Origin: Escherichia phage EP01
Sequence record: OM135583.1
Direction: 5' to 3' (one strand)
Length of the DNA stretch: 64,000 bases
Of the stretch, positions 3,728 through 8,782 are shown piece by piece. The position numbers were made by a program, and so were the translations under genes. Positions within the stretch are counted from its first letter, which is position 1; every line of letters begins with the position of its first letter. Under the pieces are notes generated by a model that did no database searches, was not told where the DNA came from, and saw nothing but the letters and a program-made list of their open reading frames with translations.

Positions 3728-4291
3728 TTATTTATCTAGTTTAGCTATTATAGCTTCTGCGGCAGCTTTTAGTTTAGATGCGGTGTTAATACGATTTTTA
3801 ATTTCAGTATACGCATCGCCAAGAACGTCAAGGCTATCAGAATAAACGCTTACACTATTGCGTTCGCTATTTGAAATAGAACCTTTAGTTTTACGATCAA
3901 AATCGATGTACACGTCTTGAAGATCACGGGCTGCCTTCTTTGCATCATCCAATGCATCAAGAGCTTTATTCAAAGCATTAACGTATTTTTTAGTGTCGAA
4001 CATATTCTTAGAAATTTTAACAGGCGCACGTTCAGGAGTAGCTAAGGCAGATTTAGGAACCTGAGCGCCAGATGCCAGTTTCTTAGAAATTTTGAAAAAT
4101 GCTTTATTGAATTTATTTTCTTGACTCATCGTAAAAGAACTATTATCAATGTTATACATTTCAATAGCTTTAGCTTTCCACTTAAGAAAATCGCCACGGT
4201 CTTTTGGGTCCAATTGGAAGAATACTTTAGTAAGTTCTGCTTCAGATGGTAATTTTGCTGCTTCGGTTAAAAATTCGGCATAAGTTTTCAT
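3728..4291 (-). CDS. internal-protein-like protein with N-terminal capsid targeting sequence
   Basis: 187 aa; N-terminus MKTYAEFLTEAA matches the T4 IP capsid-targeting consensus MKTYQEFIAEA with a predicted prohead-protease site after ..TE; followed by rho-independent terminator. Confidence 0.6.
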   Translation of the reverse strand: MKTYAEFLTEAAKLPSEAELTKVFFQLDPKDRGDFLKWKAKAIEMYNIDNSSFTMSQENKFNKAFFKISKKLASGAQVPKSALATPERAPVKISKNMFDTKKYVNALNKALDALDDAKKAARDLQDVYIDFDRKTKGSISNSERNSVSVYSDSLDVLGDAYTEIKNRINTASKLKAAAEAIIAKLDK

Positions 4292-4379: not shown

Positions 4380-4728
4380 CTAAAAAGCCCCAACCTTTCG
4401 GTCGGGGCTAAGCCTTGCGGCAACCTTGTCGGGGTTCCACCTGCTAAGGCAAGTGTTTGTACGAAACGCCGGGATTCGAACCCGGTTATTAAGCAGTTGA
4501 CGCTACTTAATATTTTTAAAAGGCCATATCTCGACCATATCCGAACGTTCCGTCAAAAACGCTACTCGGCTTACGGCAAAGATATTTCCTCGAATCGATA
4601 ATTCGGTGCGCCGTTTCTGCTGTGATGTAAGAGGGCATCAACAAATCATAAAGATTTATTAACACAATTCCTTACCCAGGGAACATCAGTCCGACGACTT
4701 ACCGGTAGCGACCCGGTTTCTTGTTTGG
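4380..4728 (-). ncRNA. candidate small stable RNA gene(s) (by position, T4 RNA species C/D-like)
   Basis: About 340 bp with no ORF, between tRNA-Arg and the next early gene; contains a tRNA-like T-arm (CCGGG-ATTCGAA-CCCGG at 4469-4485) and several stem-loops; boundaries not determined. Confidence 0.3.
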
Positions 4729-4802
4729 TCGAGGCAGAAGGATTCTAACCTTCAACCAACGGATTAGAAATCCGTTGCTCTATACAATTGAGCTATGCCT
4801 CG
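4729..4802 (-). tRNA. tRNA-Arg (anticodon UCU)
   Basis: Acceptor stem halves 4730-4736/4796-4802; T-arm 4737-4753; anticodon loop UUUCUAA. Confidence 0.8.
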
Positions 4803-5470
4803 TAGTTAAAATTCATTTTTCGACCTTTAAACCATCCTTCTGGAATTGGGTCAGTTTTCTTAATACGTTTAGAAACTTTTTCATCTAATGAATGAATCCA
4901 CATCATACCAAATTGGGAATTCTTTTCACCTTGTTGGTGTTTATTTCTGGCGTGAGATTCTTTCATTTTATTAATAGTTTCAGGAGTATGGGTCTTACCC
5001 AAGAAAGATTTAGTATTTAAAAATTTCTCTCTATACTTAGGATTATCCCAAAGCTGTTTAAACCTTTCTGAACCCATTTTACGGTATTTTTCTTTAAGGT
5101 CTGGGTCGTTCTCAAATCTGATTTTAAAAGCGGCAGCTCCTTTTAAGGAAGCTTCTTTCTTTTTATCCAAATATTCTTTAGTGTTTAAATGGCCCCAACC
5201 ACCTTCACCACCTAATTTCAAATTATAAACATCAGGGCGCTTTAAAAACTCTTCAGTCACAATATTCTTTTCTGACTCAAACATAGAGGTTTTATCGTCA
5301 AAGAACTCTAATATTTCTTTAGAAAAATTTTCTATACCATACTTGTCTTGGGCTCTTTTTAATAATTTACCAGAACCCATATATCCATCATCTAAATTTT
5401 CGGTAGAATGAGCGCCTATATAGATTTTATTATTAATTTTATTTGTTATTTTATAAATGTAATGGAACAT
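4793..5470 (-). CDS. segB: GIY-YIG homing endonuclease (SegB-like)
   Basis: 225 aa; N-terminal GIY-x10-YIG module (HYIYKITNKINNKIYIGAH); sits inside the tRNA cluster as in T4. Confidence 0.8.
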   Translation of the reverse strand: MFHYIYKITNKINNKIYIGAHSTENLDDGYMGSGKLLKRAQDKYGIENFSKEILEFFDDKTSMFESEKNIVTEEFLKRPDVYNLKLGGEGGWGHLNTKEYLDKKKEASLKGAAAFKIRFENDPDLKEKYRKMGSERFKQLWDNPKYREKFLNTKSFLGKTHTPETINKMKESHARNKHQQGEKNSQFGMMWIHSLDEKVSKRIKKTDPIPEGWFKGRKMNFNYEA

Positions 5471-6083: not shown

Positions 6084-6180
6084 ATTATTAACAAAGGCTC
6101 TCAGGAAAGAACCCTTGATGATAGAGGGTATTAATCAATGCGATATGAGTTAATAATAACAAATAATTCTTAAAGCATAT

Positions 6181-6468
6181 TTACCATTTATGATAATACA
6201 TATTTACGATACATTCAAGACCCAAAGGATTCTTGAAAATATCATATTCAAGAGGACCTTTTTCTGTTTCAATAAAGAAATCAAAATTTACTGTATTAAA
6301 TTTACGGTCTTCCTTCACTAATTTAACTTGAGAAGATGAACGGTCAATGTAAACCTTTTCAACTTCAAAACATGTTAAAATGCCATAATCATCAATCAAG
6401 GCTTTAGCCGCATCTTGATCATATTTATATCCATTTTCAATGGATGATACTTTAGCGTAAAGAATCAT
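6181..6468 (-). CDS. hypothetical early protein
   Basis: 95 aa ORF between tRNA cluster and IP array. Confidence 0.5.
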   Translation of the reverse strand: MILYAKVSSIENGYKYDQDAAKALIDDYGILTCFEVEKVYIDRSSSQVKLVKEDRKFNTVNFDFFIETEKGPLEYDIFKNPLGLECIVNMYYHKW

Positions 6469-6470
6469 TA

Positions 6471-6653
6471 TTAACCTTTAGAAATTTTATCCATAACAAT
6501 AGCGATTAAACCAATTAAAAATGCTACTACAAGTGAAAAAACATTTTCTGCTGTAGTCAATAATCCGCATATAAATCCAACAAACATTGAAAAACTAAAA
6601 GCGGAAGCAGAAATTGCAATAGCAACATTTCGAATTAATTCACAACGTTTCAT
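6471..6653 (-). CDS. small hydrophobic membrane protein
   Basis: 60 aa, almost entirely hydrophobic (two predicted TM helices); early promoter cassette immediately upstream. Confidence 0.5.
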   Translation of the reverse strand: MKRCELIRNVAIAISASAFSFSMFVGFICGLLTTAENVFSLVVAFLIGLIAIVMDKISKG

Positions 6654-6714
6654 TTTATTCTCCTCAGTAGTTGATAGGGTAATAGTATCACACTACTACC
6701 CAGAAGTAAACAAC
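6654..6714 (-). promoter_or_regulatory. promoter/stem-loop cassette (PeSL-like) with early promoter
   Basis: CATTTTATTCTCCTCAGTAGTTGATAGGGTAATAGTATCAC...GTAAAC; -10 ATAGTA 6682-6687, -35 GTAAAC 6706-6711 (plus-strand spelling). Confidence 0.65.
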
Positions 6715-6939
6715 TTATTCCGCTCCAGCAGCTTTCAAAAGCTTTTTAAGATTAGCAGTGCCACGAGCAGAAAACGTGACTTTACCATCCTTTTCACTAA
6801 TAGAGCCAGTTAACTTAGAAAGTTTATCGCTAGGAATTTTTTTAAAATCACTTAATGTACCATCAAAAGTTTTCGTAACAATTGGTAGTTCATCTTCATG
6901 TCTTTTAGCTTCAGCGATAAATTTTTGATAAGTTTTCAT
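6715..6939 (-). CDS. internal-protein-like (capsid targeting sequence)
   Basis: 74 aa; N-terminus MKTYQKFIAEA = T4 IP capsid-targeting motif; own promoter cassette. Confidence 0.65.
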   Translation of the reverse strand: MKTYQKFIAEAKRHEDELPIVTKTFDGTLSDFKKIPSDKLSKLTGSISEKDGKVTFSARGTANLKKLLKAAGAE

Positions 6940-7007
6940 TTTATTCTCCTCAGTAGTTGATAGGGTAATAATATCACTACCCTATCTAAAAGTAAACGGT
7001 TTATAAA
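6940..7007 (-). promoter_or_regulatory. promoter/stem-loop cassette (PeSL-like) with early promoter
   Basis: Near-identical repeat; inverted repeat GATAGGG/CCCTATC (6959-6965/6980-6986); -10 6968-6973, -35 6992-6997. Confidence 0.65.
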
Positions 7008-7316
7008 CTATTTTATTCCGCGTGATGCAATTGTGTTCTGCCGTTTAGCACCAGTTTGTTTAAAGTCATGATTGTCGATTTGATCGGTACGAGCAACTCC
7101 GAATGATGATTTGATTTTAGCTTTAGATCCTTTAGTTATAGAAATAAACATCTCGGAAGCCCCTTTCTTAAAGTCCGAGGCGATTACTTCAACGCCGTTC
7201 TTAGCAAGTGACCTCAGAATTGCTTCCGCATACTCATCATCAAGACCCGCTTGAGTATAAATAATGAATGTCTTTGGTGCAGCCGCTTCATTGATAAATT
7301 CTTGGTAAGTTTTCAT
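7008..7316 (-). CDS. internal-protein-like (capsid targeting sequence)
   Basis: 102 aa; N-terminus MKTYQEFINEA; own promoter cassette. Confidence 0.65.
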   Translation of the reverse strand: MKTYQEFINEAAAPKTFIIYTQAGLDDEYAEAILRSLAKNGVEVIASDFKKGASEMFISITKGSKAKIKSSFGVARTDQIDNHDFKQTGAKRQNTIASRGIK

Positions 7317-7376
7317 TTTATTTTCCTAATTAATTTTGATAAGGTAATAGTACCACAACCCTATTTAAAAGTAAAC
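7317..7376 (-). promoter_or_regulatory. promoter/stem-loop cassette (PeSL-like) with early promoter
   Basis: Variant repeat CATTTTATTTTCCTAATTAATTTTGATAAGGTAATAGTACC; -10 7347-7352, -35 7371-7376. Confidence 0.6.
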
Positions 7377-7649
7377 TCATTTTAAATAAATTGCGTATTT
7401 TTTATAACCCGCTGACTCATGACGAAGACCCTTATCATTAGCAAAACGCTCAATGTTGTTAATTTGATTCTGGTCAAGTTCAGAGATGTCAAACACGAAA
7501 TAGTTACGTTTGTTACCAACTGTTACATAGTCAGTTAAATCAATACCATATAGGTAATTGATGTTATCAATCATAGTCTTGACAGCTTTGCTAATTTTTA
7601 CTTTTTCGTTAAAAGTAGCTTCATTGATAAATTCTTTAAATGTTTTCAT
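7377..7649 (-). CDS. internal-protein-like (capsid targeting sequence)
   Basis: 90 aa; N-terminus MKTFKEFINEA; own promoter cassette. Confidence 0.65.
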   Translation of the reverse strand: MKTFKEFINEATFNEKVKISKAVKTMIDNINYLYGIDLTDYVTVGNKRNYFVFDISELDQNQINNIERFANDKGLRHESAGYKKYAIYLK

Positions 7650-7725
7650 TTTATTCTCCTCAGTAGTTGATAGGGTAATAGTATCACAACTAAAACCCTA
7701 TGTAAACAACTTTGTGAAATATTTA
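7650..7725 (-). promoter_or_regulatory. promoter/stem-loop cassette (PeSL-like) with early promoter
   Basis: Repeat copy; -10 7678-7683, -35 7702-7707; ATAGGG/CCCTAT inverted repeat; A/T-rich upstream element. Confidence 0.65.
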
Positions 7726-8013
7726 TTACAAAAGATTTTTAGCAATAATCTTGAGATGTGCCGCAGAAATGTGTTTAGCTTTAAACAACGCAGTTTCTTC
7801 AGCAGGAGAGATAATGATTGTAGCACCATCCTTTTTAGCAGACCACCCATCACCTAGGTAAACAGTACCTTTGATTTCTTCGCCATCAACCAAACTAATC
7901 ATTGGTTTACCTTCTCGTCCTTTATTTGCTTTAATAACTTCAGAAGTAAGAGTAGCTTCAGTAATAGTAGAAACCGGGATAGTTGTAGAAGTAAATTCTT
8001 TGAAAGTTTTCAT
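7726..8013 (-). CDS. ipI: internal protein I-like (IPI)
   Basis: 95 aa; MKTFKEF.. targeting sequence; predicted cleavage after ..ITE leaves 76 residues, the size of mature T4 IPI*; adjacent to 57B as in T4. Confidence 0.7.
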   Translation of the reverse strand: MKTFKEFTSTTIPVSTITEATLTSEVIKANKGREGKPMISLVDGEEIKGTVYLGDGWSAKKDGATIIISPAEETALFKAKHISAAHLKIIAKNLL

Positions 8014-8085
8014 TTTATTTTCCTAATTAATTTTGATGAGATAATAGTATCACTACCTCATCAGCGTGTAAACAACTTTGTGAAA
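8014..8085 (-). promoter_or_regulatory. promoter/stem-loop cassette (PeSL-like) with early promoter
   Basis: Repeat copy upstream of ipI; GATGAG/CTCATC inverted repeat; -10 8044-8049, -35 8068-8073. Confidence 0.65.

Positions 8086-8782
<697 letters not shown>

Follow-up and report, generated by a model that had tools for sequence, protein, structure and literature searches.

Bacteriophage T4 injects the protein IPI* (PF11634; PDB 2JUB), which inhibits GmrSD, a type IV restriction enzyme of E. coli CT596. What is said here of how the T4 internal proteins (IPs) are packaged, processed and injected, and of which restriction enzymes IpI, IpII, IpIII and Bas37_0260 act on, comes from the literature. 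IpI, IpII and IpIII each inhibit one distinct GmrSD enzyme (PMC12373910), and Bas37_0260, a protein with a capsid-targeting sequence (CTS) at the ipI locus of another phage, is a McrBC inhibitor (bioRxiv 10.1101/2025.11.20.689424); all four IPs with established targets inhibit type IV restriction enzymes. In the CTS of IPIII, residues 4 and 7 function in targeting and residues 8 and 10 in processing, and the motif of the prohead protease gp21 is L/I-x-E (PMC9026906). Later papers (PMC2839356, PMC4122927, PMC3012670, PMC12373910) credit Repoila, Tetart, Bouet and Krisch (1994, EMBO J 13:4181) with describing the variability of the locus, its conserved leader and its promoter repeats.

Here we analyze a 64,000-nucleotide window (the whole stretch under study) from Escherichia phage EP01 (OM135583.1), in which a first-pass annotation had singled out an array of CTS-tagged genes as the likeliest site of undescribed biology. 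The four-gene minus-strand array is genuine, yet it is already described and annotated: later papers credit the 1994 study, the names Ip7 and Ip9 exist, and the array is annotated in NC_031030. That the array is a hyperplastic Tequatrovirus ipI locus, with four tandem injected IP genes and cassette-mediated exchange of modules, is in our judgment very probable.

Results

By its sequence, the EP01 window belongs to a Tequatrovirus (T4-like phage), and the array is the polymorphic ipI locus that extends from 57B to trna.4 (Table 1). The gene order 3-1-57A-57B-[IPs]-trna.4-trna.2-tRNA cluster agrees with that of T4, T2, RB14 and UFV-AREG1, and the position of 57B, equal to that of T4 57B, fixes the locus. 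All four CTS genes sit in this one of the two IP loci, the other being next to gene e. The first-pass annotation was right that T4 has only ipI at this position; the interval that it gave for the array does hold the four IP genes but also takes in trna.4 (6471-6653), which has no CTS. The array members recur in identical gene order in RefSeq NC_031030 (UFV-AREG1), whose annotation calls each of the four an internal head or virion protein, and the trna.4 homologue of EP01 is annotated as Trna.4 in both T2 and UFV-AREG1.

Table 1. Features of the EP01 ipI locus and of the CTS-like ORF outside it (positions in the window; a slash marks the cleavage site).
Feature	Positions	Strand	Details
57B (Acb1 anti-CBASS phosphodiesterase family)	8086..8541	-	left boundary, outside the array; Pfam PF23474 Acb1, E 2.6e-60
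Cassette 1	8014..8085	-	promoter GTTTAC-N18-TACTAT 8044-8073; hairpin 8034-8063 around the -10 box; SD type AGGAAAATAAA
ipI, 95-aa precursor	7726..8013	-	19-residue propeptide, cut after ITE19, mature 76-aa IPI*
Cassette 2	7650..7725	-	promoter 7678-7707; hairpin 7670-7701; SD GAGGAG (contains GGAG)
ip9-like, 90 aa	7377..7649	-	CTS MKTFKEFINE/A, mature 80 aa
Cassette 3	7317..7376	-	promoter 7347-7376; degenerate hairpin 7339-7364; SD type AGGAAAATAAA
ip7-like, 102 aa	7008..7316	-	CTS MKTYQEFINE/A, mature 92 aa
Cassette 4	6940..7007	-	promoter 6968-6997; hairpin 6959-6986; SD GAGGAG
Unnamed internal protein, 74 aa	6715..6939	-	CTS MKTYQKFIAE/A, mature 64 aa, 17% Lys
Cassette 5	6654..6714	-	promoter 6682-6711; hairpin 6677-6701; SD GAGGAG; upstream of the non-IP gene trna.4
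trna.4-like predicted membrane protein, 60 aa	6471..6653	-	phrog_1692, 2.6e-34; no CTS; not an internal protein
CTS-like ORF, 187 aa	3728..4291	-	MKTYAEFLTE/A; downstream of the tRNA cluster; no cassette; phrog_2280 'unknown function'

A search against T-even phage proteins, which the first-pass annotation had recommended, recovered IpI, RB15 Ip9, T2 Ip7 and an 'internal virion protein' family, such that the tandem genes are ipI, ip9-like, ip7-like and a gene for an unnamed 74-aa IP. The 95-aa protein matches the Pfam family IPI_T4 (PF11634) at 2e-53, with 178.7 bits against a gathering cut-off of 25; it is identical to mature IPI* (PDB 2JUB) at 75 of 76 positions and 98% identical to T4 IpI, and by this measure its gene is IpI itself and no divergent relative. 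The Pfam search gave no PF11634 match for the 90-, 102- and 74-aa proteins. The 90-aa protein is 87% identical to Ip9 of RB15 (UniProt Q38376) and falls in phrog_7673 'internal head protein' (3.6e-54). The 102-aa protein (phrog_2667, 3.6e-41) is 92% identical to the 'Ip7 protein' of WG01, and its body is 94.5% identical to T2 Ip7. Names from the 1994 era, Ip9 and Ip7, apply on these similarities to two of the three extra genes. The 74-aa protein, assigned to phrog_8765 'internal virion protein' (1.4e-26), is annotated as 'hypothetical protein' in phage EP01 (100% identical); its family is present in 107 phage records, many of them from Klebsiella and Mosigvirus-type phages, and we found no Ip number for it.

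For the function of the three extra proteins, Pfam returned nothing above threshold and PHROGs gave just the labels 'internal head protein' or 'internal virion protein'. Text searches of the literature retrieved nothing on the phage proteins under the names Ip7 and Ip9, and nothing on RB69ORF148c/ncORF136c. Compact folded domains are predicted for the Ip9 and Ip7 families, within each of which identity is 70-95%. The AF2 model of the mature Ip9-like protein (pLDDT 85.5) has an alpha-beta-beta-alpha-beta-beta order and had no fold match in the PDB at E<1e-3 (Foldseek); that of the mature Ip7-like protein (pLDDT 80) has a ferredoxin/ACT-like beta-alpha-beta-beta-alpha-beta core and a disordered basic tail, and Foldseek matched it in the PDB to generic folds only, at E>=3e-3. 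The best Foldseek matches of the two models are generic two-layer alpha/beta or ACT/ferredoxin-like folds, and 2JUB is absent among the best matches listed for either.

The mature forms of the four IPs are alike in size (64-92 aa), pI (8.85-9.65) and lysine content (11-17%), a range that is the same as that of T4 IPI, IPII and IPIII. Their bodies are unrelated, as the first-pass annotation had stated: Pairwise comparison of the window bodies gave no similarity even at E<=10, and clustering placed them in four separate families. When profiles of the 90- and 102-aa families were aligned, the N-terminal leader region alone (27 columns) was matched. Common ancestry of the four IP bodies was rejected on this evidence.

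That four consecutive minus-strand ORFs (74, 102, 90 and 95 aa) begin with a CTS and a protease site, the central observation of the first-pass annotation, was borne out. Alignment of the four N-termini (95 aa, MKTFKEFTSTT...ITE/A; 90 aa, MKTFKEFINE/A; 102 aa, MKTYQEFINE/A; 74 aa, MKTYQKFIAE/A), also suggested there, left M1, K2, T3 and F7 invariant and residue 4 aromatic (Y/F). An I-x-E site occurs in all four proteins, at residues 8-10 in three but at residues 17-19 in the 95-aa protein, where it coincides with the experimentally known N-terminus of mature IPI* (2JUB starts ATLTSE). In each case the motif is followed by Ala: INE/A in the 90- and 102-aa proteins, IAE/A in the 74-aa protein and ITE19/A in the 95-aa protein. 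All of the CTS residues defined in IPIII, together with the gp21 motif, are found in the four window proteins. The pattern MK[TS][YF]xxF has five matches in a six-frame translation of the 64-kb window, each of them opening a minus-strand ORF; the array genes account for four of the five.

The codons of the leader vary synonymously among the four copies (ACT/ACA, TTC/TTT, TAC/TAT, GCT/GCG), and the leader is retained in 54 of 72 CTS ORFs of related loci that have no cassette, some of them overlapping the 57B stop codon. Because of these synonymous differences and cassette-less ORFs, the leader peptide itself is taken to be under selection, beyond any conservation of a DNA repeat.

The repeat cassette occurs in five in-register copies of 54-92 nt (roughly 70 nt), which, when the spacers were aligned as the first-pass annotation had further suggested, showed a mean column identity of 75%; each combines a T4 early-type promoter, a hairpin and a Shine-Dalgarno/ribosome-binding site. 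The claim that each array gene has its own promoter cassette holds insofar as all five spacers carry the motif, but there are five cassettes and not four, the fifth lying before trna.4. The early-type promoter consists of GTTTAC, a spacer of ~17-18 nt and an extended -10 box, TGnTAYTAT. The pattern GTTTAC-N16-19-GnTAYTAT was observed seven times in the 64-kb window against 0.02 expected, with five of the occurrences inside 1.4 kb at the array. A sigma-70 scan passed three of the five cassettes, in each of which TG precedes the -10 box. The coding strand of the array has no canonical late promoter (TATAAATA), and there are no intrinsic terminators between the array genes; the T4 omics paper offered no usable data on the timing of ipI. 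Since the array has no late promoter, the supply of IPs at prohead assembly is unexplained by sequence alone.

Strong hairpins are predicted in four of the five cassettes: -14.8 kcal/mol (z -4.2) in cassette 1, -16.6 (z -4.3) in cassette 2, -16.4 (z -4.7) in cassette 4 and -15.8 (z -3.1) in cassette 5; that of cassette 3 is weak (-6.2, z 0.0) and degenerate. The stems vary in sequence while complementarity is kept, both within the window and across loci. Strong hairpins were also predicted in nine of 16 distinct cassettes of related loci, and all of the predicted structures span the -10 box. In two repeat families, D2 and D3, the repeated sequence runs on past the promoter and takes in ~10 codons of the ORF, reaching into the CTS. 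The cassette is not specific to IPs: it also stands before trna.4, a non-IP gene. Since trna.4 has the cassette without the leader, the two elements are separable.

We compared 37 loci over the interval from 57B to the first tRNA. The number of CTS genes per locus ranges from zero to four, EP01 having the largest array among the loci sampled; by their bodies, the 72 CTS ORFs form 22 families, gene order varies among phages, and the presence or absence of IPs differs among near-identical phages. In F13076 and ECO07P1, the Ip9-Ip7-74aa genes are present and ipI is absent, and the single 57B-ip9 spacer is a hybrid, its 5' part from cassette 1 and its 3' part from cassette 2, which points to cassette-mediated gain or loss. 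This spacer is the one clear natural case of probable cassette recombination, as read from the junction itself. Cassettes with mismatched arms were found in L020 and L030.

Outside the array, a fifth CTS-like ORF (187 aa) encodes a protein whose mature form would have a pI of 9.46 and 15% Lys. Its family comprises 164 phage records and is called 'hypothetical protein' among all the matches listed. This ORF may encode an unrecognised internal protein, and there is the possibility of a third locus for CTS head proteins downstream of the tRNA cluster, to which both a 153-205-aa family and the 187-aa family (window 3728-4291) would belong. The 153-205-aa family is driven by late promoters in related phages.

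Discussion

The explanation that best accounts for the EP01 array is that of an expanded ipI locus whose products are packaged and injected. The 10-residue CTS (19 residues in IpI) would bring each precursor into the prohead's scaffolding core, where gp21 would cut after the Glu of I-x-E to release a small, basic, folded mature protein. Hundreds of copies of the mature IP would be kept in the DNA-filled head and, on ejection, would enter the cell together with the DNA, acting there ahead of any phage gene expression. Glucosyl-hmC DNA is attacked by a type IV restriction nuclease of the GmrSD type, which IpI* blocks. Each gene would have, in its cassette, signals of its own for transcription and translation, and the cassettes, as sites of homologous recombination, would allow IP modules to be gained, lost and reordered between co-infecting relatives.

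For the three proteins other than IpI, we infer both packaging and an anti-defence function. The first-pass annotation had proposed the divergent proteins of the array as candidate injected anti-defence effectors with new targets; injected anti-defence action is the accepted working hypothesis for the class, but one of the four is IpI itself. Type IV inhibition by the window proteins can be assigned, through near-identity, to IpI alone; in a panel of GmrSD variants, Ip4-10 (Ip7 included) showed no reproducible interaction (PMC12373910 supplement). By analogy with the characterised IPs, the most likely role of the Ip9-like, Ip7-like and 74-aa proteins would be to block modification-dependent nucleases or other first-line defences, with a different target for each. 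It may be that each of the three acts on a separate host defence, either a type IV nuclease beyond the screened GmrSD variants or a non-restriction system.

In Kagunavirus and Seuratvirus siphophages, a CTS-less form of the Ip9 body is encoded by a small gene amid other small hypothetical ones, which argues that the function of the body is independent of head structure. Neither Pfam nor contig context was informative about an 861-aa protein that has an Ip9-like domain. A broader reading, in which the three IPs hit new defences, the Ip9 body is a portable inhibitor and a third CTS locus lies past the tRNA cluster, is one that we hold tentatively, and its parts taken together are somewhat doubtful. 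If it were true, the Ip9 body would be an ordinary early gene in siphophages, a portable inhibitor that T-even phages have put behind a CTS cassette and so turned into a pre-loaded, injected weapon.

It could instead be that the extra IPs serve chiefly to fill the head or to condense DNA, as structural proteins with roles in charge neutralisation, core assembly or packaging and no specific host target, and that IP diversity stems from weak constraint rather than from an arms race. Every mature form is small, basic and Lys-rich, and the Ip7 model ends in its disordered basic C-terminal tail; but Ip9 and Ip7 are predicted to have compact folds, are conserved at 70-95% within each family and are not low-complexity polycations. 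There are ~360 copies of each T4 IP per head, IPIII mutants are slower in head assembly (PMC9026906), and IP lysines touch DNA phosphates (PMC3012670), whereas a CTS-less Ip9 body in siphophages cannot be filler of a T4 head. Although Ip4-10 gave no reproducible GmrSD inhibition, specific inhibition of type IV restriction is found in every IP of established function, and presence or absence among near-identical phages is the pattern typical of accessory host-range genes. We consider this explanation improbable.

Still harder to credit is the idea that the shared N-terminus is a by-product of the DNA cassette, which reaches ~30 nt into the ORF and would be kept for translation initiation or recombination; the leader would then be no packaging signal, and some of the proteins would therefore be early cytoplasmic ones that are never packaged. 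Repeats D2 and D3 do run from the promoter to about codon 10, the promoters in the cassettes are of early type with no late promoter in the array, trna.4, whose product is a membrane protein that is not packaged, is driven by the same cassette, and the CTS-less Ip9 homologues presumably work as expressed early genes in other phages; but the amino-acid leader is conserved across synonymous changes and in the 54 of 72 CTS ORFs that have no cassette, its conserved residues are the experimentally important ones (4, 7, 8 and 10), trna.4 has the cassette yet lacks the leader, and IpI of this same array is a proven packaged and processed protein, which makes a mere by-product very unlikely.

As injected proteins, IPs act in the cell before any other phage molecule, and because each characterised IP disarms a specific type IV enzyme, they shape the host range of T4-like phages, therapeutic candidates included. 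The practical value of the locus lies in the candidates that it offers to anti-defence screens: Ip9, Ip7, the 74-aa protein and the unannotated 187-aa CTS ORF.

Among individual IPs, T4 IPI* has the leader alone in common with the other three window proteins, with no sequence similarity beyond it. Bas37_0260 (phage KarlGJung, MZ501089; 77 aa) is directly upstream of trna.4, as is the 74-aa gene, and has the same locus, the same leader and a similar size, but its body is not homologous to any window IP. Only 10 leader residues align between Bas37_0260 and the 74-aa protein. A relationship between Bas37_0260 and Ip7 was considered and rejected: The full-length comparison gave a BLASTP E of 1e-7 and an hhalign probability of 93%, which fell to 0.4% (E 0.22) with the leader removed, so that the apparent 42% identity to Ip7 is due to the leader.

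In the RB49/phi1-type phages, PeSL (promoter-early stem-loop) cassettes likewise combine an early promoter with a stem-loop repeat, flank small accessory ORFs (PMC2839356, PMC4122927) and have been proposed to allow modular shuffling by recombination (Arbiol et al. 2010, PMC2839356; Comeau et al. 2014, PMC4122927). According to the authors who described PeSLs, the IP-associated elements of T-even phages are analogues and not homologues of them (PMC4122927). The T-even elements differ in having T4-type early promoters, rather than sigma-70-like ones, and AT-richer stems without polyG/polyC, and in the EP01 cassettes the -10 box is enclosed by the stem.

The closest counterparts are the T-even IP loci (Ip4-Ip10 and later variants), which, as portrayed in later papers, occupy the same 57B-trna.4 site, encode a ~10-residue leader ahead of unrelated bodies, vary as EP01 does in the number, order and identity of their genes, and have early-promoter repeats between the genes (PMC2839356, PMC4122927, PMC12373910). 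Compared through these papers, EP01 shows no difference of kind, its particulars being the four genes and a 74-aa family that has no Ip number. The window contains no new principle; it is a compact natural case in which one phage carries four different IPs and its relatives preserve a clean recombinant junction.

The internal-protein locus

The four consecutive minus-strand ORFs claimed in the first-pass annotation were found exactly so, and reading them as internal-protein (IP) genes tagged with a capsid-targeting sequence (CTS) is the correct and standard interpretation. Gene order runs gene 3, gene 1 (dNMP kinase), 57A, 57B, the array, trna.4, trna.2 and an eight-tRNA cluster; the same order surrounds the IP locus of T4, T2, RB14 and UFV-AREG1, and the array region belongs to a Tequatrovirus genome. 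Megablast of positions 6100-8600 matched 891 phage records, the closest being KIT06 (99.6% over 85% of the query) and UFV-AREG1 (95.3% over 100%). The gene directly upstream of the array, 57B, carries the label 'RNA ligase' in RefSeq and PHROGs; its Pfam match is to Acb1 (anti-CBASS phosphodiesterase; E 2.6e-60), so the array has an anti-defence gene as its immediate upstream neighbour.

Coordinates of features in the window and in related phages
Feature	Location	Strand	Remarks
57B	8086-8541	minus
ipI	7726-8013	minus	95 aa
ip9-like	7377-7649	minus	90 aa
ip7-like	7008-7316	minus	102 aa
Unnamed IP gene	6715-6939	minus	74 aa
trna.4	6471-6653		60-aa predicted membrane protein without targeting leader; within the stretch first annotated as the array
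trna.4-trna.2	6181-6653	minus	trna.2 directly after trna.4
225-aa ORF	4793-5470	minus	between tRNA-Arg and tRNA-Met(CAT)
tRNA-Arg	4726-4802
187-aa ORF	3728-4291	minus	fifth CTS-like ORF; start MKTYAEFLTE/A
Spacers with GAGGAG	6654-6714, 6940-7007, 7650-7725		before trna.4, 74-aa gene, ip9
Spacers with TTAGGAAAA	7317-7376, 8014-8085		before ip7, ipI; without GGAG
153-205-aa family	related loci L005:9866-10339, L012:8809, L014:9947, L035:9967, L036:9566 and others		none in window
Leaderless Ip9 body	UTEC10 L041:2504-2722; KS_A3 L042:2492-2716		~50% identity; among small hypothetical genes, 44-58-kb siphophages
Chimeric ORF	OLB35 (MH992122) L046:2501-2734		77 aa, annotated 'ip7 protein'

We identify the 95-aa protein as IpI: it matches Pfam IPI_T4 at E 2e-53, is 98% identical to T4 IpI, and agrees at 75/76 positions with the solved chain of mature IPI*, which starts exactly after ITE19. 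RB15 Ip9 (UniProt Q38376) is 87% identical to the 90-aa protein, and matches to T2 ip7 and to the 'Ip7 protein' of WG01 identify the 102-aa protein as Ip7. The 74-aa protein has the sequence of a phage EP01 'hypothetical protein' (100% identity) and is assigned to phrog_8765 ('internal virion protein'); it is found in 107 phage records. That the four bodies are mutually unrelated, as had been proposed, was borne out: BLASTP among them gave no match even at E<=10, they split into four separate clusters, and the Ip9 and Ip7 family profiles aligned only at the N-terminal leader region.

Several observations concern the adjoining tRNA region. The gene trna.3, present in T4, RB14 and UFV-AREG1, is missing from the window, F13076 and ECO07P1. 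The 225-aa ORF, whose N-terminus is GIY-YIG-like in appearance (YIYKITN...KIYIGAH), occupies the position of the T4 homing endonuclease segB, and shares 10 nt at its 3' end with tRNA-Arg. What is called tRNA-Met(CAT) here is probably the tRNA-Ile of T4 (anticodon CAU), the annotation it carries in RB14.

Possible functions of the array proteins

By induction from four characterised IPs, the most likely function of Ip9, Ip7 and the 74-aa protein is a specific one against host defence, with modification-dependent nucleases the most probable targets. Ip1, Ip2 and Ip3 each inhibit one distinct GmrSD enzyme; ip4-10 gave no reproducible interaction with GmrSD variants, an apparent ip7 x CLS_011 signal being unconfirmed (Silas et al. 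2025, PMC12373910). Bas37_0260 of KarlGJung (MZ501089), a leader-bearing 77-aa protein from the same locus, inhibits McrBC (2025 preprint, bioRxiv 10.1101/2025.11.20.689424); its homology to the window proteins was considered and rejected, being absent after the leader is removed. The mature array proteins are basic and Lys-rich (pI 8.85-9.65, 11-17% Lys), as are T4 IPI, IPII and IPIII, and a mainly structural, DNA-condensing role for Ip9, Ip7 and the 74-aa protein seems unlikely next to the inhibitory activities of the characterised IPs.

AlphaFold2 confidently predicts an alpha-beta-beta-alpha-beta-beta arrangement for mature Ip9 (pLDDT 85.5) and a ferredoxin/ACT-like core with a disordered basic tail for mature Ip7 (pLDDT 80); Foldseek searches of both models against the PDB returned no match at E<1e-3. 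The Ip9 body also exists without a leader, as 66-74-aa proteins in the siphophages UTEC10 (Kagunavirus) and KS_A3 (Seuratvirus), and it makes up residues 663-735 of a metagenomic 861-aa protein whose contig carries phage-like genes. This distribution suggests a self-contained module to which T-even phages have added the leader. In UTEC10 its gene is the first in a series of small ORFs that diverge from the replication genes. Other matches carry the variant CTS-like leaders MKFNEFLTEA and MKSFKEYLTES.

The capsid-targeting leader

All four array proteins share M1, K2, T3 and F7 and have an aromatic residue, Tyr or Phe, at position 4. An I-x-E motif spans residues 8-10 in the 90-, 102- and 74-aa proteins; in the 95-aa protein it is I-T-E, at 17-19. 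Ala comes next in each case. These conserved residues are positions mapped experimentally on T4 IPIII, where residues 4 and 7 serve targeting and 8 and 10 processing, the prohead protease motif being L/I-x-E (PMC9026906). Across six frames of the window MK[TS][YF]xxF has only five matches, each of which opens a minus-strand ORF. Because the four copies in the array vary at synonymous sites, and 54 of 72 leader-bearing ORFs in related loci retain the leader with no cassette upstream, the leader is conserved as a peptide and not as DNA alone; that it is only a side effect of the DNA repeat preceding each array gene is highly improbable.

Many relatives outside Tequatrovirus lack a cassette before the first IP gene, whose ATG overlaps the 57B stop codon (..TAAATG..; position 6453 in loci L006, L011, L016, L019, L020, L022, L024, L025, L027-L029, L031, L032, L037, L038 and L040). 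This arrangement points to translation coupled to that of 57B/Acb1 and not to a separate promoter for the gene.

The promoter cassettes

Five copies of an intergenic cassette of ~70 nt, in register, precede ipI, ip9, ip7, the 74-aa gene and trna.4 (cassettes 1-5). Each contains GTTTAC, a spacer of ~18 nt and a TG-extended TAYTAT, which we take to be the T4 early-promoter pattern; this motif occurs seven times in the window (0.02 expected), five of them within 1.4 kb, and three of the five cassettes pass a generic sigma-70 scan. Arbiol et al. described IP-associated elements in the same early-promoter terms (PMC2839356). Around the -10 box, four of the five form a 10-13-bp hairpin (-14.8 to -16.6 kcal/mol; z -3.1 to -4.7), that before ip7 being degenerate. 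Stems vary in sequence with complementarity kept (GATGAGG/CCTCATC, TAGGGT/ACCCTA; in other phages GGTCTATAG/CTATAGACC), and 9/16 distinct cassettes from related loci fold strongly. No U-runs follow the cassette hairpins, and the scan gave no intrinsic terminators.

The 3' part of the cassette is of two types, GAGGAGAATAAA and TTAGGAAAATAAA, and the Shine-Dalgarno sequence GAGGAG of three spacers contains GGAG. The T4 endoribonuclease RegB cuts at GGAG, as the regB note in the T4 record also states. The two types could confer differing mRNA lifetimes on the genes behind them.

Leader-like genes beyond the tRNA cluster

The 187-aa ORF, with its leader-like start, may encode an unrecognised internal protein. 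The product is basic (mature pI 9.46, 15% Lys). With tRNA-Arg and a terminator-like hairpin upstream of it, the ORF falls in neither of the two classical IP loci, and no promoter cassette precedes it. Its PHROG match is phrog_2280 ('unknown function'), and it is present in 164 phage records, labelled 'hypothetical protein' throughout the matches listed (RB14ncORF136c, bas37_0243); T4 lacks it. In relatives this gene adjoins a leader-bearing family of 153-205 aa (start MK[TS]Y[AN][EQ]FL[NT]E), preceded by a GC-rich terminator hairpin and the canonical T4 late promoter TATAAATA. The family occurs in 512 phage records, all 'hypothetical protein' or 'Phage protein' among the matches listed; the window has kept the terminator and lost the gene with its late promoter.

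Variation between phages and earlier knowledge

We counted leader-bearing ORFs from 57B to the first tRNA in the window and in 36 loci encoding 57B relatives (IMG/VR). Five of these 37 loci have none, 16 have one, 13 two and two three; only the window has four. Given this range, the 22 body families into which the 72 leader-bearing ORFs fall, and a gene order that varies between phages, 'expanded' is a fair term for the array.

F13076 and ECO07P1 carry ip9, ip7 and the 74-aa gene, ipI being missing, and their single 57B-ip9 spacer joins the 5' end of window cassette 1 to the rest of cassette 2, just what crossing over from one cassette to another should yield. In two related loci (L020, L030) the hairpin arms of cassettes are mismatched, which looks like similar recombination scars. 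The OLB35 ORF is a chimera, its N-terminal part 93% identical to Ip7 and its C-terminal part 80% to Ip9; in its annotated form it begins within the Ip7 body and has no CTS. Recombination inside the IP bodies, not at cassettes, seems to have produced it.

The claim of novelty does not hold: locus, leader, cassettes, two gene names and an identical array are already in the literature or RefSeq. Later papers credit Repoila et al. 1994 with discovering two highly polymorphic IP loci and the conserved leader, and with promoter-containing elements proposed to drive shuffling (PMC2839356, PMC4122927, PMC3012670, PMC12373910), and Arbiol et al. cite >30 IP variants (PMC2839356). Nor is the array unique to the window: the genes are also present in KIT06, where the 74-aa one is disrupted, and UFV-AREG1 has all four in the same order, labelled in RefSeq as internal virion or head proteins.
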